The notes beneath the pieces were generated by a model, which was not told the origin of the DNA, did not search any database, and was given only the letters and a program-made list of their open reading frames with translations. Source: a virus. From it: a stretch of 64,000 nucleotides of DNA. Position numbers and translations under genes: made by a program. Positions 7,812 through 36,569 of the stretch are shown in pieces (within the stretch, counting starts at the first letter, position 1; every line of letters begins with the position of its first letter). The stretch is from positions 202,924 through 266,923 of IMG/VR virus record IMGVR_UViG_3300036772_000425; one strand, written 5' to 3'.

Positions 7812-8663
7812 CCGCAACAGGTTTTCAACGTACTCACGACGCAGCCGGTACTTGGGCTCGAACCGGGTGATGCTGTACAGCGAGAAGGCCAGGTCGTAGT
7901 CGGACGCAGGGACGTGGATGTACCCTGCGTCGACCGCGCAGAAGATCCCCACGTTGTACGCCCCCAGGACGACAGACGGCACCAGGGATTGTTGGATCTG
8001 GGATCGAAGGCTGGGATCGAAGGACACGTACACCTTGTTGACCGACACCTCACCCTCTTCCAGGAAGGACCAAGTTTCCGCTGACAGCTGATCCTCCGTC
8101 CATGTCCGGGCCAACGTTCTGAACAATCGTCCCCAGTGCTTTCTGCCTCCCTGCCGCGAGCTCAACAAGCACTCCTTGCCGACGAACTTGACCTCCCCAT
8201 ACGGGGTGTCGTTGTGGTCCAGCGTGGGGGTCGGATCCAAGCCTAAACGGATCCGGATCTCTCTTTCCCACCGACCCTCGTAGGCCATCACGGGTGCATG
8301 CGAGCAGTTCATCGTACGTTCTTCATTGCTGAAGATCCCGCCCAGCCTCGGATCACTTTCCCTGGTGTGGGCCACCAGGCCCACAAGCTCTTCCAGGTTG
8401 AAGCATTTCAACGCTTCGGGTTCAGCTGCCACCATGCCTGAACGTCTGCTCTCTAGGTCATCCAATGCTCGTTGGGCCCTTTCAAGTGACCTTTCATCCG
8501 CCCTTGTTGGGATCTGACGGCTCTTGGACCGACCTACGTTCATCTCCTGCTTGGAACCGATGGTGCGCGCTAGCCGTTCTACCTCGTCGTGGAGACGAAG
8601 GATCTCGGCATCCATCGGAACAATGACGGAGATGAACGCAGGGGCCTGCGTGAATTCATCCAT
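7575..8663 (-). CDS. hypothetical protein; 3' ~235 nt overlap convergent NMNAT gene
   Basis: ORF track 7575..8771; the start is set at the internal MDEFTQ; the C-terminal ~70 aa look like a low-complexity readthrough antisense to the NMNAT gene. Confidence 0.4.
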   Translation of the reverse strand: MDEFTQAPAFISVIVPMDAEILRLHDEVERLARTIGSKQEMNVGRSKSRQIPTRADERSLERAQRALDDLESRRSGMVAAEPEALKCFNLEELVGLVAHTRESDPRLGGIFSNEERTMNCSHAPVMAYEGRWEREIRIRLGLDPTPTLDHNDTPYGEVKFVGKECLLSSRQGGRKHWGRLFRTLARTWTEDQLSAETWSFLEEGEVSVNKVYVSFDPSLRSQIQQSLVPSVVLGAYNVGIFCAVDAGYIHVPASDYDLAFSLYSITRFEPKYRLRREYVENLLRSGAQQGVPDQVAVDPVGQHGGEPNPIALVQEPAHHGPAHVDGGGAVDCLEVNTTLVEELRTVPQQPVVREVVGEVCRV

Positions 8664-8721
8664 CTGTTCCTCCTGCGTGGGATGATCCCCACCCGCAGAA
8701 GGTACGATCCCGGATCCCGAA

Positions 8722-9918
8722 CTACATGCGAACAGTTCCCATCCGGGTCCGATCGTATCGTTGGATCCCAAGGATCTGATTGACAGGAGCGAAGCAACCG
8801 GTCAACTTGTAGGTTTGCCCCCGCCAGGGGAAGACCACCCCCTCGATCGAAGAGGTGATGCCACCGTAGTGTGTGAGATCATCGAGGTTATCGTGCAGCA
8901 GTTCGACCTGTTCCGGATCTGCATCTGCCTCGATCTGAGCAGCACAGGCTCTCACCGCATCATGCATCATCTGCAGGGAACGCTGGTGGGATACGACCAT
9001 GGGAGACCGAGCGAACGCGAGCGTATCGACAGCAAGCCGTTGGACGATACCCACGATGGGCCTACGAAGTATCTTGACCAGGAGTTCCGATCGTTCGACG
9101 AACTCACCGATCTTCCAGCTGAATTCCGGGCATTGCTGCTTGAGAAGCGTCAGGTTATGGTACCCGGGCAGCTTCAAGGCACGTGCGACGATGCGACACT
9201 GCATCCTGATCGGCAGGTGAAGCTCTTCAACGAACGGGACGAGGCGCATTCGCAGGTAGTCTGCGATGGTCGAATCCAGCCCAAGGTCTGAAACAGCAAG
9301 GGTGTGCTGCAGGGCACGTTGGAACGTAGGTAGGCATGAGTCCGGCCGAGCACTGAAGTTGATGGGAACCGGGCCCCTCACAGTCCACCCAGCTGCATCC
9401 AGCGTCCCTGGGCCCAGGATGGGATCGAGGGCATCGGGCCGGCAGCTGTCCTTGATCGCCTTCCCATCGACGACCCTGAAGCTAGAGCAGCCATGGATGA
9501 CCACGTGGTTGCCCACGTACCTCACCACGTTCGGGTTGTCCTCGCTGATGATCTCAGCGTTGTACCAGCGCTGTGCCTCACCGAAGGTCGACAGCAGGAG
9601 ATCGACGGAAGCCCGCCCGATCGCACCCTGCAGGGCACGGAAACCACCCACGAACGCAAGGATGACGTTCGGTTTGTTCGGGAACCTAGCCGCCAGCTCG
9701 GGCTCTCCCATCCCGCCGCGGACGATGTCTCCCAGGCCACGGGCCACCCGGAGACCGGCAACGGGATGCCAACTGAACGTCAGCGCCTGGCCGTCGAGCT
9801 TCTCTGTCGCTCCGGCCAGGCGACCACCGTGGATCGTCTCGGCAAGTTCGAGCAGGTCACGGAACCTGAGCTCATGATCCTCGTACAGGTGCTTGATGTG
9901 TCCGGCAGCTCCGCCCAT
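8722..9918 (-). CDS. ATP-dependent RNA ligase, Rnl1-like
   Basis: nucleotidyltransferase motif I EKLDGQAL (KxDG) about 40 aa from the N-terminus; size (398 aa) similar to T4 Rnl1. Confidence 0.55.
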   Translation of the reverse strand: MGGAAGHIKHLYEDHELRFRDLLELAETIHGGRLAGATEKLDGQALTFSWHPVAGLRVARGLGDIVRGGMGEPELAARFPNKPNVILAFVGGFRALQGAIGRASVDLLLSTFGEAQRWYNAEIISEDNPNVVRYVGNHVVIHGCSSFRVVDGKAIKDSCRPDALDPILGPGTLDAAGWTVRGPVPINFSARPDSCLPTFQRALQHTLAVSDLGLDSTIADYLRMRLVPFVEELHLPIRMQCRIVARALKLPGYHNLTLLKQQCPEFSWKIGEFVERSELLVKILRRPIVGIVQRLAVDTLAFARSPMVVSHQRSLQMMHDAVRACAAQIEADADPEQVELLHDNLDDLTHYGGITSSIEGVVFPWRGQTYKLTGCFAPVNQILGIQRYDRTRMGTVRM

Positions 9919-14041: not shown

Positions 14042-14353
14042 TCAACCCTCCGCGCTCGGCGCGCCGGGTGCAGCGGAGGGTCCATTGTACTTTGCATCGG
14101 TCCAACGTCGACCGAAGTACAGTGTCAGGATCGGGACCAGGTAGGCTCCGCAGGCTGATACGTCGAAGGGCCTGATGTTCAGGCTGCCGATGTGATCAAT
14201 GATCGAGACGATGTACGCAAGCGTCGTCACCCAGAAGGCGATGAACACCATCGTCACCGTCACTGATCCGTAACCCTTGGCGTCCCGGATCCAGAACCAG
14301 GCTGGCTTGACCTCAGTCGGATCCGGATCGTTGCTGCTCGCTTGCTGGTCCAT
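14042..14353 (-). CDS. membrane protein (2 predicted TM helices)
   Basis: VTMVFIAFWVTTLAYIVSII and AYLVPILTLYF hydrophobic segments. Confidence 0.5.
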   Translation of the reverse strand: MDQQASSNDPDPTEVKPAWFWIRDAKGYGSVTVTMVFIAFWVTTLAYIVSIIDHIGSLNIRPFDVSACGAYLVPILTLYFGRRWTDAKYNGPSAAPGAPSAEG

Positions 14354-14400
14354 GTTTACCTCGAAGTCCTAAGGGACTACGGGTAAATAGCGATCAGCTG

Positions 14401-14877
14401 TCACTTTGTCGCGCGGGACACGGCGAAAACAGTCAGGACAGTCAGGACGATCCCGGCGGCGCCGCCGATCCCAAACCAAACGGGCGCGCTCAGACCGGAG
14501 GACTGCTGCTTGATCTGATCGTTCAGGATGCCGACCTGACGCTTGCCGTCGTCAACCTGGGCTTGCAGGATCCGCTTGTCAGCGGTGAACGTGGTTGTCA
14601 GGCTGTCGACCTGGTACTTCAGTTGAGCTCCGTCGAGCTGCGACTGGTGATTCACCGCAAGGTCCAGCTGGGCAGACCAGGTGTCCTTCTGCGAGATGAT
14701 CGACGCAGCAGCCTCGGGAGAAAGCAGGACACCGGTGAAGGGTGCAGGCTGCGATTTCTGCAATGGAGCAATGACAGGTGCCGGAGCGCTGGACACAGGA
14801 GGCACCTGAGCCCAACATAGGCTGGAACCCATAATCATGGATGCCATCAACAGACCAGAGATCGTTCGCTTCATCAT
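14401..14877 (-). CDS. exported/membrane-anchored protein (signal peptide plus C-terminal TM)
   Basis: start at MMKRTISGLLMASMIMGSSLCWAQV (signal-like); C-terminal VWFGIGGAAGIVLTVLTVFAV. Confidence 0.45.
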   Translation of the reverse strand: MMKRTISGLLMASMIMGSSLCWAQVPPVSSAPAPVIAPLQKSQPAPFTGVLLSPEAAASIISQKDTWSAQLDLAVNHQSQLDGAQLKYQVDSLTTTFTADKRILQAQVDDGKRQVGILNDQIKQQSSGLSAPVWFGIGGAAGIVLTVLTVFAVSRATK

Positions 14878-14911
14878 GGGATAGTACCCATATGAAGCAC
14901 CGTGTTTCAGT

Positions 14912-15289
14912 TCACCTGCTGACGGTGAATCCGTAACGGGATCCCAAGAGCGCAGCCATGCCCGCAGCATCGTTCCCGTACTGCTTGATGAGCTGCTTCT
15001 GCTCCGTTCCTTGACGTTCTTGGAGCTGCGCGGAGGCATCAGCATAGTCAGCCTCGATCTTTGAGTACGCAGCGTGAAGAGCGTCCAACTCCTGCTGGTG
15101 CTGTGCAACTTCGTCTGCCTGGGCTTGCTTGACCTCATCCAACTCCTGCTGGTGCGAAGCGTTGAGCTTCGCAAGCTCGTCAGCGCTGGTCGATTCCCTT
15201 TGATGAAAGGCTACCGCGGCGACGATGATGACAAGGACAACCAGAGCTGATTGCCAGTGCGCACGGAAGAAGTTCAAGACGCTTAGCAT
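14912..15289 (-). CDS. membrane-anchored coiled-coil protein (i-spanin-like topology)
   Basis: N-terminal TM ALVVLVIIVAAVAF followed by a Gln/Glu-rich coiled coil. Confidence 0.45.
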   Translation of the reverse strand: MLSVLNFFRAHWQSALVVLVIIVAAVAFHQRESTSADELAKLNASHQQELDEVKQAQADEVAQHQQELDALHAAYSKIEADYADASAQLQERQGTEQKQLIKQYGNDAAGMAALLGSRYGFTVSR

Positions 15290-29030: not shown

Positions 29031-30395
29031 TCATGCGATCAACTTCACCTTCCAGAGGCCGGTCGACACCCCGAAATCATCCTTCTTGACCTCCGCCACG
29101 TAGAGCCGGAAGGGTTCCAGGAGCTCCTTCGCAGTCCATACGCTCAACCGGATCGGCTTTCCGATCGGCCCTGTGACAAAGACCTGGACGTAGTCCTTGC
29201 CTGCCTTCGACCTCTTCTTCAGGCCCGCCACCGGCTCTCCGCCCTTCTTCACGGTCGCCAACACCGTGACGAACCACACCACGTCAGTCTCACCGAGCTC
29301 CAGATCCTCGATGGATCCTACGCCCTTGTTGTCCATGCGCCCGAAGATCTCCGGATCGAACATGGTGGTGACGTCCGCGGTGCCGAAGAGCTCTGACTGG
29401 AACCCAGCGAGTTCACGTTGGGTCCATTCCTCCGAAAAATCATCACGAAGACCGCGGGCCAGGCCGTACAGGTTCTTCCTGCCCTCATGCCGATCCTTTG
29501 TGGGTGATCGCTTGATCATGGCACCGTGGTCGCGGACACGTTCGACCATCTCGGTGGATCCCTTCCTGCGTGGGACCTCCTCCGTGTACGAACCCATCAT
29601 GACCTCGTACATGTGACGGTAGCTGCCGAACAATCGATCATCACCGACGCAGTTCAGGCTGTCGAAGGCCCGGATCTTGATCAGGGCTTCCATCGCTTTC
29701 CTGTTGAGCTTGCTGGGGCGCCAGCTACCGTCCTCCGCGTACAGGAGAGCCTCAAGGTCAGAGAACGGACGGTTTGCCACGATCTCCTCGACAGCCGCCT
29801 CGCCGATCCCCTTGACCGTCGTCATGCTGGGCATCATCCGTTTCCCTGGCAGGATGGTCCAGCTCACGGTGGCATGGTTGATGTCGATGGGCACGATCTG
29901 GTATCCCAAGGAACGTGCCTCGCCGAACGCCTTCGCTCGATGGATGGGAGTGTGCGACATGGACTCCATGTATGCGCACAACCACTGTTCCTCGTAGTAC
30001 GTCAGGAGCCAAGAGCACCAGAAGCTGTCGATGGCATACGCCACCGCATGGCTCTTGTTGAAACCGTAACCTGCAAAGTACAGGATCTTGTCGAAGAGGT
30101 TGCTGGCCACGGCCTCCGTGTACCCATTGGTGATGGCGCCCTGGATGAAAGGATCCCGAATCTCCTTCTTTGCCTTCTCGGCAGCGGCTCCCACCAACTT
30201 CATGATGGCGCGACGGACCTCGTCGCACTTGTCCTTCGGGAACCCGGCGACCTTCTCGGCAAGTTCCATCACCTGCTCCTGAAAAATTATACAGTTATGC
30301 ACCAGAAGGTTATTTGCGAAGAAGTTGTGGTTCTTCTTGACCTGGATGTCGTACACCGGTTGGGCCGGTTTCCGCACGATCGACCGGATCTTCAT
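29031..30395 (-). CDS. dnaE: DNA polymerase III alpha subunit C-terminal fragment (DnaE-C) preceded by a split-intein C-fragment
   Basis: begins MKIRSIVRKPAQPVYDIQVKKNHNFFANNLLVHN|C (an Npu DnaE IntC-like VYDIGVERDHNFALKNGFIASN|C); the extein contains AGYGFNKSHAVAYA, the hallmark of DnaE. Confidence 0.85.
   Translation of the reverse strand: MKIRSIVRKPAQPVYDIQVKKNHNFFANNLLVHNCIIFQEQVMELAEKVAGFPKDKCDEVRRAIMKLVGAAAEKAKKEIRDPFIQGAITNGYTEAVASNLFDKILYFAGYGFNKSHAVAYAIDSFWCSWLLTYYEEQWLCAYMESMSHTPIHRAKAFGEARSLGYQIVPIDINHATVSWTILPGKRMMPSMTTVKGIGEAAVEEIVANRPFSDLEALLYAEDGSWRPSKLNRKAMEALIKIRAFDSLNCVGDDRLFGSYRHMYEVMMGSYTEEVPRRKGSTEMVERVRDHGAMIKRSPTKDRHEGRKNLYGLARGLRDDFSEEWTQRELAGFQSELFGTADVTTMFDPEIFGRMDNKGVGSIEDLELGETDVVWFVTVLATVKKGGEPVAGLKKRSKAGKDYVQVFVTGPIGKPIRLSVWTAKELLEPFRLYVAEVKKDDFGVSTGLWKVKLIA
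30294..30395 (-). mobile_element. split intein C-terminal fragment (IntC, 34 aa) of DnaE
   Basis: blocks F/G with terminal HN followed by the +1 Cys at 30291-30293. Confidence 0.8.
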
Positions 30396-30415
30396 GGGCG
30401 CAACGGTCTGCATGC

Positions 30416-31153
30416 CTACATTTTCCTCAATTTGCTGGGATAGTTCACTGCCTCGGACGCCCATACCCGATGGACGGTGTACCCGAGCGCCTCGCCAGCC
30501 CTCGTGAACGACAGGTCGATCCTGAACTGTCGTTTCATCTTGGGGGTGAGCTGGTGCATGTCAGGGTTGCCGTGCCAGTAGTCCCCGTCGAACTCCACGA
30601 TGAGCTTGATGGACGGGACGCAGAAGTCGAACTCATGGTTGATGGTGTCAACACGGAACCGATGGATGACCTCGTCACCGTGGATCGCCTCCAACACGCT
30701 CTTGAACGCGAGCTCAGCCTCCGAGTTCCGCTTCCGAGGTTTCTGCGTCTCGAGCCCTTTGCTGATCTTTCGAGAGTGTTCATCGAAGAAACCGGCCTCA
30801 TGTGAGCGCAGGTGCCATGTCAAACCGCGGTGTCGTTTGAAGATCCGACCGCACTGGTCGCAGGCCACGTCAGTCGCCTCATCGTTCGAACTGCAGTAGG
30901 ATCTGTGGGAACGCAGTGCCGTGTTGGAACAGAAGTCCTTCTTGCAAACATCGCACCGGTACTCACCCTCCTTCCGGACGTTCTCCCGCAGTTTCGCGAT
31001 CCTCAATTTCTCCAGGTGTTCATCGGTGAACTTTCGACCCTTGTATGTTCGGCGGCGCCATTCCGACAGGTGTTCGATGCAGCATGCGACAGACCGCACG
31101 TTGCGTGTCACGTACTGCTTGTCGCAGATAAGACACGTTCTGTTCAATTTCAT
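30416..31153 (-). CDS. C2H2 zinc-finger protein with C-terminal Vsr/DUF559-like endonuclease domain (putative free-standing homing endonuclease)
   Basis: two C2H2 fingers (CDVCKKDFCSNTALRSHRSYC; CDQCGRIFKRHRGLTWHLRSH); C-terminal IVEFDGDYWHG...D..R...L...GY.V.RVW matches the DUF559/Vsr-like fold signature; 20 nt upstream of IntC. Confidence 0.6.
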   Translation of the reverse strand: MKLNRTCLICDKQYVTRNVRSVACCIEHLSEWRRRTYKGRKFTDEHLEKLRIAKLRENVRKEGEYRCDVCKKDFCSNTALRSHRSYCSSNDEATDVACDQCGRIFKRHRGLTWHLRSHEAGFFDEHSRKISKGLETQKPRKRNSEAELAFKSVLEAIHGDEVIHRFRVDTINHEFDFCVPSIKLIVEFDGDYWHGNPDMHQLTPKMKRQFRIDLSFTRAGEALGYTVHRVWASEAVNYPSKLRKM

Positions 31154-31188
31154 CTTCCAGTAGCCTTTCCTGGAAGATAGGTATCAGC

Positions 31189-32268
31189 ATGAGCGCCCTT
31201 GAGAAGGTTTCATACAAATTTGTGCAGTATGCAAAATCCTGCATCAGGCAGAACACAGAGGCTGCACTGCGTGATATGCGGATCCCATTGAACCCAGCTC
31301 AGTGGGATCAACTGGCGCCCATCATCTCAGCCTCGATCGATGAAGCTTACGCTCATGCATTTCCCGAACTAGACTCACTGATGCGATCGCCCGATAGCAT
31401 CGATCCAGAGACGTTCGACATCCCTGATGGTTTGATCGAATTCGCTGGTAAGATGACATCGCAGGCGAAGCGTAAGACTGCGGCCTTCACCATCGTTCGC
31501 AACGAATCCTTCTTCCTGGAACTGTGGTGCCGGTACTACGCTCGTGAGTTCGGAGCGAGCAACCTGTACATCCTGGACAACAGCACGTCAGACGGTAGCG
31601 TCGAAAGGATCAAGGTTCGATGGCCCGACATCAACATCGTCCTCGTGCCCAGTGTCGAAGCCATGCGATGGGCCTGGTGTACCAGCATCGTACGATGCTT
31701 CCAGAAGATCTGCCTGAAGGGTTACGATGTCGTGGTGTTCTCAGACGCTGATGAGTACCTGGTACCGGATGACGGACATGGACTGCGGGCCTACGTTGAA
31801 CGATTCCGAAATTCAGATCTGTCGTACGTTCGGGCCACCGGTTGGGGGGTGGTGCAGCAACTGGACACCGAGGGTTCGATCACCTCGCACGAACAGGTTC
31901 TTACTGATCGACGAAAGGCCTGGCGCACGAGGGCCTACGACAAGACATTGATCAGCAAGGTTCCCTTGGATTGGGCTAAAGGCAGTCACACCATTCGCAT
32001 CAACGGTGCGAAGATGACAGGTGATCCGTGCGATCCGACACTGTCGCTGGTTCACCTGCGTGACCTGGACGTTGCTATGTTCCACGAACGCTGCTTGAAG
32101 CTTGCTGCGCTGAACCCAGCCGGGCTACCTTTGGCGCACCACGGTTCTATCGACCTTCGTCAGATCGAGGAGTACTTTCGCACGCTGAAAGCCCCTTGGA
32201 ATCCACTGGCGATCCATTACGAAGGATCGCCAGTGGATGTTCCAGAGACCTGGCGCGCATCAATCTAG
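31189..32268 (+). CDS. GT-A-like glycosyltransferase family protein (DxD)
   Basis: FTIVRNESFFLELWCRYY...ILDNSTSDGS...VVFSDADEY pattern typical of GT-A nucleotide-diphospho-sugar transferases; plus strand between the dnaE halves. Confidence 0.45.
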   Translation: MSALEKVSYKFVQYAKSCIRQNTEAALRDMRIPLNPAQWDQLAPIISASIDEAYAHAFPELDSLMRSPDSIDPETFDIPDGLIEFAGKMTSQAKRKTAAFTIVRNESFFLELWCRYYAREFGASNLYILDNSTSDGSVERIKVRWPDINIVLVPSVEAMRWAWCTSIVRCFQKICLKGYDVVVFSDADEYLVPDDGHGLRAYVERFRNSDLSYVRATGWGVVQQLDTEGSITSHEQVLTDRRKAWRTRAYDKTLISKVPLDWAKGSHTIRINGAKMTGDPCDPTLSLVHLRDLDVAMFHERCLKLAALNPAGLPLAHHGSIDLRQIEEYFRTLKAPWNPLAIHYEGSPVDVPETWRASI

Positions 32269-33150
32269 GATGAAGGTGCGCACAACTCCGACAGTTCCGT
32301 TCTGCACGCCGCTTCCGCCAGCAACGGCGATCGAACCGCTGTTTTGCAACACGTTCGCCGTCACGATCAGGATAAGACCTCCGGCACCCCCGCCGCCCCA
32401 CCCGTTGGGATCGTTCTGTCCACCGTTTGCATGGATCGACCCGCCGCTTGCAACGATCAGATCGTGAGCGATAAGGGCAATCACGCCGCCACCACCACCG
32501 CCTGAACCTTGCGCTCCGGATCCACCACCCGCTCCACCGGTGATGGGCAAACTTGAACCCGCAGATGCGTGGACAAGATCTTGGACGGCGACAGGTACAA
32601 CATCTCCCATGGATGTCATGTTCCAGAATGGAACGTAGCTACCACCGTGGAACGACGTTCCGGAACCATCGCCACCTCGAGCGTTGGCTCCTAGCACACC
32701 GTTTGTTGATGCAACACCATCGGAATTCGATCCACCGGTGCTTCCACCGCCCAATGTGCCAGCTGGGCCACCCACGCCGCCAGGACCAGGATTTCCACCT
32801 CCGCCGTTCGAACCATTTCCGCCGTCGCAGGCGACAGTACCGCTGATGGTGCACAGGTTCTGAACGAAGATCCGATAACCGTTGCTGAACAGGGTTTGAC
32901 CCGATTGAACAGTCAACGTCGAATAGTACATGTCCCGCGACAGCGTAGTGCTACCTGAAATCACAACGCTACCATCACTACCGTTTCCGTAGGACGATGT
33001 TGAGTTTGAGTTCCCTTCGATCAACACCGACCCGTTGGACTGGCTCGTGATGCTGACACCGCTACCGGCGATCAGGTAAGACGAGCCGTCAACCAGTTGT
33101 GTAAGGGACCCAGAAATACCGCCCAGTGAATCGACAATGAATGTTTTCAT
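32260..33150 (-). CDS. Gly/Ser-rich beta-helix-like repeat protein (possible fibre or structural protein)
   Basis: 296 aa dominated by GGxGxxG, NGS and SGS repeats; lies immediately downstream of dnaE-N/IntN. Confidence 0.45.
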   Translation of the reverse strand: MKTFIVDSLGGISGSLTQLVDGSSYLIAGSGVSITSQSNGSVLIEGNSNSTSSYGNGSDGSVVISGSTTLSRDMYYSTLTVQSGQTLFSNGYRIFVQNLCTISGTVACDGGNGSNGGGGNPGPGGVGGPAGTLGGGSTGGSNSDGVASTNGVLGANARGGDGSGTSFHGGSYVPFWNMTSMGDVVPVAVQDLVHASAGSSLPITGGAGGGSGAQGSGGGGGGVIALIAHDLIVASGGSIHANGGQNDPNGWGGGGAGGLILIVTANVLQNSGSIAVAGGSGVQNGTVGVVRTFILD

Positions 33151-33171: not shown

Positions 33172-35985
33172 TCAGTCGGCGATGCGAGTGATCGAATCCG
33201 TGTCCAGAAGTTGCCCTGCCTCGACCCACCCACGTTGGGTCATCACCAGGTGATCCTCGGTCAGTTCCAGGGTGGTCCCGTCATCCATCGTGAGCTCGAT
33301 GATGTCACGAACACCGTTGCAGACCACGGCGACCACTTCGTCCATCTCCACTTGACCCGTGGATTCATTGTAGGACGGAAGCTTGGTACCCACCATGTTC
33401 CGGTCCACGATTTCTTTGATGGGCACCTCGCCCATCTCAGTCATCACCCGGGTGTCACCCGTCAGGCAGGAATTGGTCTTCGCCAGGATCTTGTTGATCC
33501 GGACGTCGCCCCATTCGATCTCCTCCCCGTTGTTCTTTGCCTTCAGGTACAGCTTGTCGACGTTGGCCGCAAGGGGTCCAGGTCGGTAGATGGAGGTCAG
33601 GGTTGCGATGTCGACGATGCTGGTGGGCTTCGCCTTGACGAACAGCTTCTGAGCTCCGGCAGACGTCAGCTGGAAGATGCCTGCCCATCGGGCCTGAGCG
33701 TAGACCTCGTAGGGTCGTTGGTCCATGAAGTCAATGACATCAGGGGCCAGGTGTTGCTCGTACCAACCTCGGATGTCGTCGAAGGTGGGTTTCGGGTTGC
33801 CGCCCTTGATCAGGATCAGCTCGATGGTGCGCTCGATGAGCCGCATGGTCTCCAGGCCCAGCAAGTCGTACTTGATGAACTCACCGATCTTCTCCAGGTG
33901 CTTGGCATTCAGCCCTTCCACCCACGGTGATTGTGGCTCACGCTCGCCACCCTTTCCCTTGGAGGTGACCAGCGGCATCTTGCTGGGCAGGTCGTCTGCG
34001 ATGAGAACCCCACCAGCGTGGCGTCCCAGGGAACGATTCTGCTTGAACAGGGTGTTGATGGATTCTGCAACCTGCGGGTGCCTGTCAATGAAACCCTTGA
34101 ACGATGGGCTGACGGGCTTGTCGCAGTCGGGTGAACAACCGGTGCACACCGATTTCAACCTCTTGTTGACAAGATCCTCGCACAGGAAGCCGACAGCGTC
34201 GGCGTACATCAGGTTGAACAGGTTCTTGTCGTCTCCCTGCCGGGAGATCGCCCTACGAACCTCGTCCTCCACCGTGCGGGTGGCTGCATTGACCTCCTCG
34301 AATGGAACACCGTAGAACTTGCCGAGATCCTTCACCAGCGACTTCAGCTTGAAGTTGTTGTAGTTGGAGATCGGGACGACGTTCTCCCATCCGAAGAACT
34401 TCCGGAGCTCGTTGAGCACCTTGTCACGGTCCGCAAGGTCCGTATCGATGTCAGGGGCGCCCTTGCGGTACACGCTGAGGAAACGAGCGAAGGGAAGGTC
34501 CCACTTGAGAGGATCGAGGTCGGTGATGAAGAGGACGTAGGCCACCAACGAACCACCGCCGGAACCACGAGCGGGGCCGACAAGGCACACCTTGCGCGCC
34601 AGCTCCATGATCTTCTGGTACGAGATGAAGTACACCTCGTTCTTCATCTGCTTGATGACCCCCAGTTCCTCCTTGAGCCGAGCGATGTAGTCCTGCTTGT
34701 CATGCAGGCCGCGGCGCAGCATGCCAGCCTTGCACAGGTTGACAAGGTGGTTGAAGCTCGGAGTCCCCTCCGGGATCAATTTCTTGGTCGGGAACTTCGG
34801 GCTTCGATCGGGCGGTACCTCACCGATCACCCTGTGAGCGATGTCATGGGTACGCTCCACCGCGTCCCGGATCACATCATCCCGGTACCAGCCGGTGCCG
34901 TCCTTGCTCTTCAGGTACTCGTCCCAGATCTGGGCAGCGTTCTTCGGATAGAGTTCGCACTTGAGCTCATCCTTGGAACGAGGGAGGCTGTCGGGCTTGA
35001 TCTCGTAGCCCATCCAACCCAGCTTCTTGTAGAGTTCGCGTTCCTTCCACAGCTCGGGTCGAGCGTAGTGGGAGTCAGCGGTGACGACCAGCTGCTGGTT
35101 GAGCCCATTGCGCTCGGTGAACTCCATGATCGCACGGTTGACCAGGTTCTGGGCCGACAACCGGTTGAACTGCAGCTCCAGGTAGTAGTTCCCCTCGCCG
35201 ACAGCGTCGACCATCTGCTGGTAGACGTTGCCCACCGCGGCGACGCACCGGTCCAGAAGATTTGGATCGTCCAGGAGAGCGGCGTTGAGGTCGTCGAACT
35301 TGTGCTTCTGCAGTTCCTGGAACATTGCGAAGGCGGGGGCGCCGCCGATGCAGGCGCTGGTCACCACCACGTTCCGATCCTTACCGGCTTCCTTTAACAT
35401 CGAGAAATCGATGCGAGGGAACTTGTAGAACCCGTTCAGGTACCCCTTCGCCGTTGCGGCGAAGATGGAAAGGAGACCCTGTTGGTTCTTGGGCAGCAGG
35501 ACCAGGTGGTGTCGACGGTTGACCGGGTTGAAGTGCTTGGTCGATTTGGTCTCATCCTCGTTCTCGATGGTCAGAGCGTTGGAAAGCTCCAAATCCTCGG
35601 TCTCATCGTCACCGTCGACAGTGGCGATCACCTTGGTTTGCATGAATTCCTGCTCCTTACGGAGCTTCTTGGCCTCTGCCTTGTCCTGCTTCGCACGTTC
35701 TGCACGGGCCATGTCCTGGCGCCAGATGTCGAGATCAGGATGGTAGTACGCTTCGATGCCCGGGATGTACTTGAAAGGCTTGTCCTTGTTGGACTTCGTC
35801 CAGTCCTCCACCCAAAGTTGGGCCCAGGCATAGGAATTCATGCTGCCATGTTCCGTGATGGCCATCGCATCCATTCCATTTTCGATGGCAAAGCGGAAAT
35901 GTTCATCGGGATATCCCAAGCCATCGAACGCGCTGAACCCAGTGTGAGAATGAAGGCCAACAAACCGCTGCGGAGCATCAGGCAT
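33172..35985 (-). CDS. dnaE: DNA polymerase III alpha subunit N-terminal fragment (DnaE-N) ending in a split-intein N-fragment
   Basis: PHP domain RFVGLHSHTGFSAFDG at the N-terminus; ends ...NS|CLTGDTRV...TEDHLVMTQRGWVEAGQLLDTDSITRIAD* (an Npu DnaE IntN-like CLSYETEI...KDHKFMTVDGQ). Confidence 0.85.
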   Translation of the reverse strand: MPDAPQRFVGLHSHTGFSAFDGLGYPDEHFRFAIENGMDAMAITEHGSMNSYAWAQLWVEDWTKSNKDKPFKYIPGIEAYYHPDLDIWRQDMARAERAKQDKAEAKKLRKEQEFMQTKVIATVDGDDETEDLELSNALTIENEDETKSTKHFNPVNRRHHLVLLPKNQQGLLSIFAATAKGYLNGFYKFPRIDFSMLKEAGKDRNVVVTSACIGGAPAFAMFQELQKHKFDDLNAALLDDPNLLDRCVAAVGNVYQQMVDAVGEGNYYLELQFNRLSAQNLVNRAIMEFTERNGLNQQLVVTADSHYARPELWKERELYKKLGWMGYEIKPDSLPRSKDELKCELYPKNAAQIWDEYLKSKDGTGWYRDDVIRDAVERTHDIAHRVIGEVPPDRSPKFPTKKLIPEGTPSFNHLVNLCKAGMLRRGLHDKQDYIARLKEELGVIKQMKNEVYFISYQKIMELARKVCLVGPARGSGGGSLVAYVLFITDLDPLKWDLPFARFLSVYRKGAPDIDTDLADRDKVLNELRKFFGWENVVPISNYNNFKLKSLVKDLGKFYGVPFEEVNAATRTVEDEVRRAISRQGDDKNLFNLMYADAVGFLCEDLVNKRLKSVCTGCSPDCDKPVSPSFKGFIDRHPQVAESINTLFKQNRSLGRHAGGVLIADDLPSKMPLVTSKGKGGEREPQSPWVEGLNAKHLEKIGEFIKYDLLGLETMRLIERTIELILIKGGNPKPTFDDIRGWYEQHLAPDVIDFMDQRPYEVYAQARWAGIFQLTSAGAQKLFVKAKPTSIVDIATLTSIYRPGPLAANVDKLYLKAKNNGEEIEWGDVRINKILAKTNSCLTGDTRVMTEMGEVPIKEIVDRNMVGTKLPSYNESTGQVEMDEVVAVVCNGVRDIIELTMDDGTTLELTEDHLVMTQRGWVEAGQLLDTDSITRIAD
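33175..33468 (-). mobile_element. split intein N-terminal fragment (IntN, 98 aa) of DnaE
   Basis: block A CLTGDTRV (Cys1 codon 33466-33468) and block B TEDHLVMT; terminated by a stop codon, with no contiguous C-terminal intein part. Confidence 0.8.
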
Positions 35986-35999
35986 AGAACACCCTACCA

Positions 36000-36569
36000 C
36001 TAAAGGTTGGCCCATTTCACAAGATACGCTTGAGCGTTCAAAACGAAGTCCCGATCTTCAACAACTGCCAGCTTCAAATTGCAATTTCGACACAACAATC
36101 CTCTGATCCTACCTGAGTTGTGATCATGATCGACTGCAGCGGAGTTCACATCGAAAGCTGATTTGCAGATCTCGCAAAGAAAATCCTGTGAGATCAGTTT
36201 GTCCCTGAACTCAGAATGACAAATCCCATAGTTCTTGATCCGACGAATGTCAGAACTCGTTGAAACGCACTCATCACAGTAAAGCTGGCTGCTGGAATTC
36301 AGCTTGAAGTTTTTCTTGCAGTGCTTGCAGCACTTGTCCTTCAAAGATCGATTACGTACAGCTTCGACAAGCTGCGGAGTTCTAACTTGTCTTTCACGTA
36401 CTAGTCCAAAACGATGGATAGCGTACTGAATCTGTCCTTGCGTCACCGTGAGACCGAGCGTCTCCAAACGATTCCCGATGATCGATGCCGACAATTTGTC
36501 AAGCATGTACCAAGCAACGATCTCTTGACGAAAGGCATCAAGTTTGATTTGAACTGCATTCATCTTCAA
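36000..36569 (-). CDS. Endonuclease VII (T4 gp49)-family HNH-like nuclease with N-terminal HTH-like domain; probable homing endonuclease
   Basis: AVDHDHNSGRIRGLLCRNCN hallmark plus CKHCKK upstream; the gene lies in a ~43% GC island. Confidence 0.65.
   Translation of the reverse strand: MKMNAVQIKLDAFRQEIVAWYMLDKLSASIIGNRLETLGLTVTQGQIQYAIHRFGLVRERQVRTPQLVEAVRNRSLKDKCCKHCKKNFKLNSSSQLYCDECVSTSSDIRRIKNYGICHSEFRDKLISQDFLCEICKSAFDVNSAAVDHDHNSGRIRGLLCRNCNLKLAVVEDRDFVLNAQAYLVKWANL

Follow-up and report, generated by a model that had tools for sequence, protein, structure and literature searches.

What is a gene for a zinc-finger nuclease doing between the two halves of a viral dnaE gene that is broken at a split intein? 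The locus lies on a 64,000-nucleotide (nt) stretch of viral DNA (IMG/VR record IMGVR_UViG_3300036772_000425, positions 202,924 to 266,923), here called the window. The gene encodes a 245-amino-acid endonuclease, designated HEN (30416..31153, minus strand, ATG start), in an open reading frame (ORF) found exactly as a first-pass annotation, made from the nucleotide sequence alone, had given it. That annotation proposed an intein-associated free-standing homing endonuclease. Our analysis indicates that HEN is very probably a free-standing homing endonuclease of the EDxHD family, forming with a split mini-intein a composite selfish element in phage dnaE.

The two parts of dnaE, the gene for DNA polymerase III alpha, are encoded on the minus strand. 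An ORF at 33172..36015 encodes the 849 N-terminal residues of DnaE followed by the N-terminal intein half, IntN (CLTGDTRV...LTEDHLV...ITRIAD and stop; PHROG 4.3e-143). The N-extein (33469..36015), which ends ...KILAKTNS, contains the PHP and pol III alpha domains and part of the finger domain, and IntN (33172..33468) is 98 amino acids plus stop. The product of the downstream ORF begins with the C-terminal intein half, IntC (30294..30413, minus strand; 40 amino acids, MQTVAPMKIRS...NHNFFANNLLVHN), which runs into its terminal ...MQTVAPMKIRSIVRKPAQPVYDIQVKKNHNFFANNLLVHN and is followed by the C-extein, CIIFQEQVMEL... (29031..30293, minus strand; the rest of the finger domain and a helix-hairpin-helix [HhH] region; PHROG "DNA polymerase," 1.2e-54). 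With a caret marking each junction, the boundaries read ...KTNS^CLTGDT...ITRIAD-stop and M...LLVHN^CIIFQEQ, and intein blocks A, B, F, and G can be recognized in the sequence. Since the halves show Cys1, TxxH, the terminal HN, and Cys+1, their sequences identify IntN and IntC as a canonical class-1 split mini-intein, and protein trans-splicing would be expected to restore DnaE. The HEN stop codon (TAG, 30418-30416) lies close to IntC. The first-pass annotation had placed HEN 20 nt upstream of IntC, which holds if IntC starts at ATG 30395; comparison with L010, one of the related loci (L numbers) described below, favors ATG 30413, which leaves a gap of 2 nt, and the longest ORF, from 30464, would give a 49-nt overlap. 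A GAGGA Shine-Dalgarno-like (SD-like) sequence precedes ATG 30413, within the 3' end of the HEN ORF.

The C-terminal part of HEN (amino acids 140 to 238; 30440..30736, minus strand) is a predicted Vsr-like PD-(D/E)xK nuclease domain and contains the motif EFDGDYWHG at residues 187 to 195. Direct matches to family models were weak. Pfam DUF559 (PF04480; cutoff, 20.6) scored 17.7 bits with whole HEN and 20.6 bits with the isolated domain, Pfam Vsr (PF03852) scored 15.0 bits, below its cutoff of 27, and TIGR00632 vsr scored 23.6 bits (expect value [E], 4.9e-5), not reaching its cutoff of 97.85. A profile search of 1.84 billion representatives returned 5,655 relatives at an E of ≤0.001. Among 126 full-size relatives, DUF559 was recognized in 95 (E of ≤0.001), MTES_1575 in 88, and Vsr in 38. 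When these 126 relatives and the query were combined in a profile and compared with the PDB, matches to 3hrl (1.7e-8), 3r3p (5.8e-8), and 1cw0 (1.4e-5) were obtained; 3r3p_A was matched by neither the query alone nor the close clade alone. Whole-protein and whole-clade-profile searches of PDB sequences were swamped by eukaryotic zinc-finger proteins. The AlphaFold model of the nuclease domain had a predicted local distance difference test (pLDDT) score of 91.4. The Vsr/DUF559-like fold assigned in the first pass was therefore borne out by fold and family profile, despite the weak direct Pfam scores.

The active site was mapped from printed profile alignments to Escherichia coli Vsr and to I-Bth0305I, the EDxHD prototype encoded in the recA intron of phage 0305phi8-36 (PDB 3R3P; Taylor et al. 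2011, PMC3239194), and residue roles were taken from the latter study. HEN residues E147, D176, H194, and D213 correspond to E170, D196, H213, and D222 of I-Bth0305I and to E25, D51, H69, and D97 of Vsr. At the "x" position, D189 of HEN stands in place of N208 in I-Bth0305I and H64 in Vsr, while E187 aligns with a conserved acidic residue (E) of I-Bth0305I and with F62 of Vsr. None of the six positions varied among 26 close homologues, and in the 126 relatives each was either invariant or conserved at 90% or more. Catalytic acidic residues, whose absence on alignment would have counted against the nuclease assignment, were found (E147, D176, D189, and D213, plus E187). HEN shares with the EDxHD family the Vsr-like PD-(D/E)xK fold, the E-D-x-H-D motif, and an acidic residue at the Phe62 position; the family's N-terminal NUMOD or helix-turn-helix (HTH) motifs are absent, and zinc fingers take their place. 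The N-terminal motif is a point of variation within the family and not a catalytic criterion, and in catalytic site and fold HEN fits the EDxHD family and not Vsr proper.

These comparisons also define how HEN departs from its characterized relatives. Like HEN, I-Bth0305I is bipartite, with an N-terminal DNA-binding region, and the two share the five catalytic positions and the extra acidic residue. I-Bth0305I is intron encoded and has two NUMOD/HTH-like motifs, whereas HEN is intein associated and has zinc-binding modules; the loop from the His to the last Asp is 19 residues in HEN and 9 in I-Bth0305I. By analogy with I-Bth0305I, the HEN nuclease domain itself is probably sequence selective. 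From E. coli Vsr (PDB 1CW0 and 1VSR) HEN is set apart by the Glu in place of Phe62, by its zinc-finger N-terminal half, and by its failure to pass the family models, and the context of Vsr is the dcm-vsr pair, whereas that of HEN is a mobile element.

Analysis of the N-terminal half of HEN suggested that it is made up of zinc modules. Pfam zf-C2H2 (PF00096) scored 33.9 bits (cutoff, 25.2) over two stretches, amino acids 65 to 84 and 98 to 118, and the PDB sequence matches of HEN were C2H2 arrays such as ZFP568 (E, 2.7e-10). Among the Pfam models named in the first pass as a check, this was the one to exceed its cutoff, Vsr falling below its own and DUF559 at or below. Two classical C2H2 fingers had been described, and finger 2 (30800..30868, minus strand) is indeed a classical CCHH finger (C98, C101, H114, H118; C-x2-C-x12-H-x3-H), whereas finger 1 (30893..30961, minus strand) is of the CCHC type (C67, C70, H83, C87; C-x2-C-x12-H-x3-C). 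The ligands of both were invariant in an alignment of the 26 homologues (35 to 70% identity). A third, Cys-rich module, absent from the earlier description, lies at the N terminus (31070..31135, minus strand; C7, C10, C24, H28) and is predicted to form a beta-hairpin and a helix. C7, C10, and C24 are near-invariant, and position 28 is His or Cys, with Cys in most homologues; six longer homologues, five of them among the 26 aligned, contain a second copy of the module. It gave a weak match to zf-BED that was not significant (E, 0.046). A further conserved segment, YKGRKFTDEHLEKLRIAK (30989..31045, minus strand), with a predicted helix at residues 44 to 53, may be NUMOD3-like, judging by eye alone; no Pfam NUMOD3 match was found in HEN, including in its N-terminal 63 amino acids alone. 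The AlphaFold model of the whole protein (pLDDT, 89.6) shows beta-beta-alpha units at all three modules as well as a linker helix; an alpha/beta domain begins near residue 140.

Full-length homologues were collected from ENA, NCBI, JGI, Logan, and IMG/VR (loci L001, L003, L005, L008, L010 to L013, and L015 to L019). Every one that was found (at least 13 loci on large viral contigs, 32 to 68% identity) lies between IntN and IntC at a single dnaE site, and the insertion point is shared: ...(S/T/G)^C-intein-HN^C(I/L)IFQE.... In the commonest layout the endonuclease directly follows IntN; in L003, three ORFs, one of them HNH-like, stand between IntN and the endonuclease, and in L008 to L010, two small ORFs separate the endonuclease from IntC. 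A search with the spliced extein identified approximately 25 related loci with an uninterrupted, intein-less dnaE junction. The closest of these, L082 (369-kb contig), is 77% identical to the window extein and is as near to it as the intein-bearing relatives are. At L020 (6001-6207), the endonuclease between IntN and IntC is reduced to amino acids 177 to 245, the last 69 residues, as expected for decay after fixation. The dnaE of L020, whose contig is shared with L113 and L115, is interrupted once more, some 67 codons upstream, by an intein-like insertion. The ratio of nonsynonymous to synonymous substitution rates (dN/dS), taken from the two nonsaturated homologue pairs, was 0.10 (L008/L010) and 0.07 (L015/L016), values that indicate purifying selection on the HEN ORF. 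Taken together, the fixed site, the intein-less alleles, the remnant, and the low dN/dS are the standard signatures of homing endonuclease genes at the sequence level, and the proposal of an intein-associated homing endonuclease is upheld by the constancy of the site among full-length homologues and the existence of intein-less close relatives.

Comparison of alleles at the nucleotide level revealed a signature on the C-extein side of the intein. In the window, the first four C-extein codons are TGT ATA ATT TTT (30282..30293, minus strand), a synonymous variant. Of the alleles tabulated, 7 of 11 with the intein had the form TGT/TGC ATA AT(T/A) TTT, and all 9 without the intein lacked it. At the IntC/C-extein junction, the window (30282-30299, minus strand) and L001, L003, L008, L010, L011, and L020 have the common string CATAAC^TGTATAAT(T/A)TTTCAGGA. 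The genomes with this string range from 45 to 58% G+C, and the string holds a rare ATA Ile codon. Intein-less alleles with Cys+1 instead read TGC ATC ATC TTC CAG (or TGT ATC/ATT) and never use ATA. No such shared nucleotide signature was seen when the N-extein sides were compared. The flank signature fits either co-conversion with the element or synonymous changes conferring resistance, and it suggests that recognition or cleavage takes place on the C-extein side. TGTATAAT, at the start of the C-extein, could also be read as an extended -10 promoter element, for which the sequence offers neither a -35 element nor a context in support. A CTCCTG...CAGGAG inverted repeat around the L082 insertion point was discarded as a dimer site, being weakly conserved among intein-less alleles.

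The HEN start codon lies in a leader hairpin, UAUCUUCCAG-GAAAGGCUA-CUGGAAGAUG (31151..31179, minus strand), with the ATG in its 3' arm and a purine-rich SD-like tract in its loop. The hairpin has 10 bp with the AUG included, a predicted energy of -14 to -16 kcal/mol, and a z score of -2.1, and it was found in 11 of 14 distinct loci. In the hairpin alignment, 93% of cells were paired, compared with 44 to 53% in slid controls, and four pairs had changed on both sides. This conservation indicates a hairpin that sequesters the start codon of HEN. The TATAAATA late-promoter element reported by Dassa et al. (2009) was not seen at this locus, and a scan for sigma-70 promoters and terminators around the locus gave no more than were found in shuffled sequences.

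The leader also resembles the candidate target. The 5' arm and loop of the hairpin are similar to codons 2 to 7 of the intein-less C-extein (ATC ATC TTC CAG GAG CAG), the target-like copies being ATCTTCCAGGA in the window (31165-31175, minus strand), ATCATCTTTCAGGAGCA in L005 (7974-7990), and ATCTTTCAGGAGCAG in L008 and L010 (5971-5985 in both). Up to 16 of 17 nt match the target in L005. In 10 of 14 loci the best leader match has the same register, and in five loci it was reached by 0 to 1 of 2,000 shuffles; because the hairpins are homologous, the resemblance counts as one event. The copy could be left over from insertion, could have arisen by chance under the constraints of a hairpin and a ribosome site (convergence), or could be an operator-like mimic of the target. 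I-TevI represses its own expression through a target mimic used as an operator. A tentative joint reading, to which we give a minor share of our confidence, combines these elements. HEN would be a natural zinc-finger nuclease whose target is the first seven C-extein codons, TGC ATC ATC TTC CAG GAG CAG. The mRNA leader and promoter-proximal DNA would hold a partial target copy, ATCTTCCAGGA, whose complement is the other hairpin arm and which would act as an autorepression operator. The TGT ATA ATT TTT variant would travel with the element and, as a form of synonymous-variant immunity, spare carrier genomes from cleavage.

Several points weigh against the interpretation of HEN and the intein as a homing element. 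The activity, target, dimerization, zinc binding, and trans-splicing of HEN and its close homologues are inferred. The direct Pfam scores for DUF559 and Vsr are at or below cutoff, and when the close clade was profiled over the nuclease domain only, no PDB sequence matched significantly (best E, 0.38 to 0.49); the link from HEN to PDB structures required the wider 126-member profile and structure comparison. IntN and HEN are not adjacent. The 2.0 kb between them is occupied by two unrelated cargo genes, passed over in the first-pass annotation, which would enlarge the co-converted tract: one encodes a Gly-rich, 296-amino-acid protein without family assignment (32260..33150, minus strand), and the other encodes a 359-amino-acid family-2 glycosyltransferase-like protein (31189..32268, plus strand; Pfam 1.4e-9). 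Neither a contiguous mini-intein nor an endonuclease-free split intein was found at this dnaE site among 115 loci, and since neither intermediate allele turned up, the step that joined endonuclease to intein is unobserved. Finally, endonuclease divergence roughly follows DnaE divergence across loci, a parallel that fits long vertical residence as well as it fits frequent horizontal homing.

This last observation is also an argument for regarding HEN as an immobile relic, fixed in the lineage and inherited vertically with dnaE, perhaps kept for the translation signals of IntC-DnaE(C) in its 3' end. The position of the IntC SD-like sequence within the HEN ORF and the L020 remnant, in which the 3' end has persisted without the rest, are consistent with that notion. 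However, the entire ORF is conserved at 35 to 70% identity, zinc ligands and all catalytic residues included; dN/dS values of 0.07 to 0.10 would be unexpected if the last 30 nt alone mattered; and intein-less and intein-bearing alleles are interleaved at similar DnaE identity. We therefore consider a relic unlikely. HEN might instead be a weapon that cuts the dnaE region of competitors (marker exclusion) or host DNA, with no copying of the element. The same facts that suggest homing, namely, a site-associated nuclease and susceptible-looking alleles in relatives, would be accounted for, and the seg and mob endonucleases of phage T4 cause localized marker exclusion. Exclusion and homing are normally two outcomes of one cleavage, though, and the synonymous C-extein flank shared across genomes of differing G+C suggests that flanking DNA travels with the element, so that a weapon alone appears quite improbable.

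A Vsr-type mismatch-repair nuclease or a zinc-finger transcription regulator that happens to lie beside IntC can be given very little credence. One source does annotate HEN as a "very-short-patch-repair endonuclease," the TIGR00632 match has an E value of 4.9e-5, and C2H2 fingers are typical of regulators. Against this stand the TIGR00632 and Pfam Vsr scores, which fall far short of their cutoffs (23.6 versus 97.85 and 15 versus 27, respectively), and the invariant Glu at the Vsr Phe62 position, a trait of the EDxHD family. Moreover, chance adjacency is no explanation for a split-intein position shared by 13 or more loci at identities as low as 32%.

Under the preferred reading, that of a homing endonuclease and split intein forming one element, the following mechanism is proposed. 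During co-infection, the zinc modules would anchor HEN on an element-free dnaE allele, and the nuclease domain, probably dimeric as in I-Bth0305I, would cut near the intein insertion point, the likeliest target being the first C-extein codons, TGC ATC ATC TTC CAG GAG. Repair by recombination off the element-bearing genome would then copy the stretch from IntN through the endonuclease to IntC, along with a short C-extein flank. Two features would protect the element-bearing genome itself: its site is interrupted by the intein, and the codons beside the intein differ by synonymous changes (TGT ATA ATT TTT). Trans-splicing of the protein halves would restore DnaE function. The leader hairpin may hold HEN translation down, and translation of IntC-DnaE(C) would start from the SD-like sequence within the 3' end of the HEN ORF. 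Splitting of the gene may also have made room between the halves for more genes, here those for the Gly-rich protein and the glycosyltransferase.

The element is of a known kind, since three DnaE loci were already among the fractured genes described by Dassa et al. (2009; PMC2677866). Twelve loci in that study had Vsr-like endonucleases, hairpins were found in 15 of 16 endonuclease leaders, and overlap with the downstream ORF was described (PMC2677866). The likeness extends to the host gene broken at a split intein whose halves, IntN and IntC, enclose a free-standing Vsr-like endonuclease gene, the hairpin before the endonuclease start, the endonuclease 3' end that abuts or overlaps the IntC ORF, dnaE as one of the host genes, and the origin in environmental phage-like DNA (PMC2677866). 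The architecture of split inteins with a free-standing endonuclease, to which the first-pass annotation had likened this locus, thus matches the fractured genes of that report. The terms "zinc finger" and "C2H2" do not occur in it, and the sole N-terminal motif reported was NUMOD3, in two members (PMC2677866). At the present locus, likewise, dnaE is broken at a split intein, an endonuclease gene lies between the halves, and a hairpin stands upstream of its start codon. In the window, unlike in those fractured genes, IntN and the endonuclease are separated by two additional genes, one of which runs in the opposite direction. A related arrangement is collaborative homing, in which the free-standing endonuclease F-CphI acts with the cyanophage psbA intron. 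There, too, the endonuclease has a gene of its own, and the carrier genome is protected because the splicing element sits within the target. F-CphI, however, is an Endo VII-like nuclease, whereas HEN is of the EDxHD type and is paired with a split intein that would act at the protein level.

The distinguishing feature of HEN is the combination of zinc fingers with a restriction-fold nuclease. Engineered zinc-finger nucleases (C2H2 plus FokI) and R2 retrotransposon proteins (C2H2 plus a restriction-like endonuclease) combine the same types of module. Unlike the engineered nucleases, HEN occurs naturally in a phage; it has just two canonical fingers, together with a Cys-rich module, and shows no FokI homology. 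An artificial fusion of an EDxHD domain with zinc fingers was proposed by Taylor et al. (2011; PMC3239194). The first-pass annotation had called the fusion unusual. Fingers are indeed a minority partner: among the 126 nuclease relatives, Pfam recognized NUMOD3 at the N terminus of 56 and zf-C2H2 in 13, and a C2H2-like pattern was present in 37 of 145 relatives. The description is less apt in that similar viral UniProt proteins exist and the fusion recurs in these phages. In BFVD, uncharacterized viral UniProt proteins, named automatically as, for example, "C2H2-type zinc finger" and "DUF559 domain-containing protein," align over both halves of HEN. A literature search found no published description of the combination of zinc fingers with an EDxHD/Vsr-like nuclease. 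As judged from these sequences, the zinc-finger/EDxHD architecture is a recurrent yet undescribed variant and not a one-off.

The surrounding DNA indicates what kind of genome carries the element. The wider window contains genes for a ribonucleotide reductase large subunit, a DnaB-like helicase, an exonuclease, and a tRNA nucleotidyltransferase. Because an identical protein is present on a 340-kb contig and relatives are found in IMG/VR contigs of 150 to 370 kb, the carrier is probably a large phage, a jumbo phage by inference. A near-identity DNA search with 9 kb against 50,697 GenBank phage records gave zero matches, and hence no sequenced close relative among them; tblastn of HEN against the same phages gave nuclease-domain matches only (27 to 37% identity), none of them full length. 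The database gene call for HEN, P0001, is a 196-amino-acid protein (30416-31006) with an internal TTG start that omits the N-terminal Cys-rich module and the hairpin-embedded ATG. As the N-terminal 49 amino acids are conserved across homologues, the full 245-amino-acid ORF is correct and the shorter call is not.

Further breaks and nucleases were noted in and around related genes. L008 (7608-10549) has a second split intein in the same dnaE, ...GYGFNKS^C...LTSN^SHAVAYA, beside the cyanobacterial DnaE split site; a finger-bearing free-standing ORF with an EFDGKYH DUF559-like C terminus (8216-9253) lies between its halves, and the window dnaE is uninterrupted at this site. In the 175-amino-acid protein P0029, IntC and approximately 52 C-extein residues are fused in frame to the last approximately 80 residues of an endonuclease's nuclease domain; this may be what is left of a related endonuclease at a different dnaE break point. 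dnaE is broken at several extra places in L001, L005, L008, L012, L013, and L017, while the window N-extein is in one piece: the PHP/pol3-alpha part is apart from the finger domain in L001, the HhH part is 5 kb downstream in L005, and L008 has four N-terminal pieces. Outside dnaE, an EDxHD-type endonuclease with a C2H2-like finger is found in a fractured terminase large subunit gene with a split intein (L065, 991-4014), and another EDxHD-type endonuclease lies in a helicase-like gene with inteins (L044, 4877-9215). In L003 (NCBI GCA_009712145.1), dnaE is closely preceded by an Endonuclease_7 gene, and a TnsA-like/NUMOD3 gene is in the neighborhood (1329-1982 and 14310-14930); both are further candidates for mobile nucleases around the replication module.

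None of these findings overturns current understanding; the main points of interest are the natural pairing of zinc fingers with a nuclease, a defined candidate target, and a possible target mimic in the leader. For protein ligation, the Cys1/Cys+1 split intein (98 plus 40 residues) adds one more candidate. The set of loci yields a defined candidate target sequence and a candidate resistant variant. Arranged as a series, from intein-less alleles through split intein with endonuclease and endonuclease remnant to halves parted by cargo, the loci would represent successive stages of gene fracturing. For the EDxHD homing endonucleases, HEN would extend the family to members with a C2H2-type zinc-finger DNA-binding half. 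Such members would be the natural equivalent of engineered zinc-finger nucleases, in the very combination that the authors of the I-Bth0305I study proposed to build.

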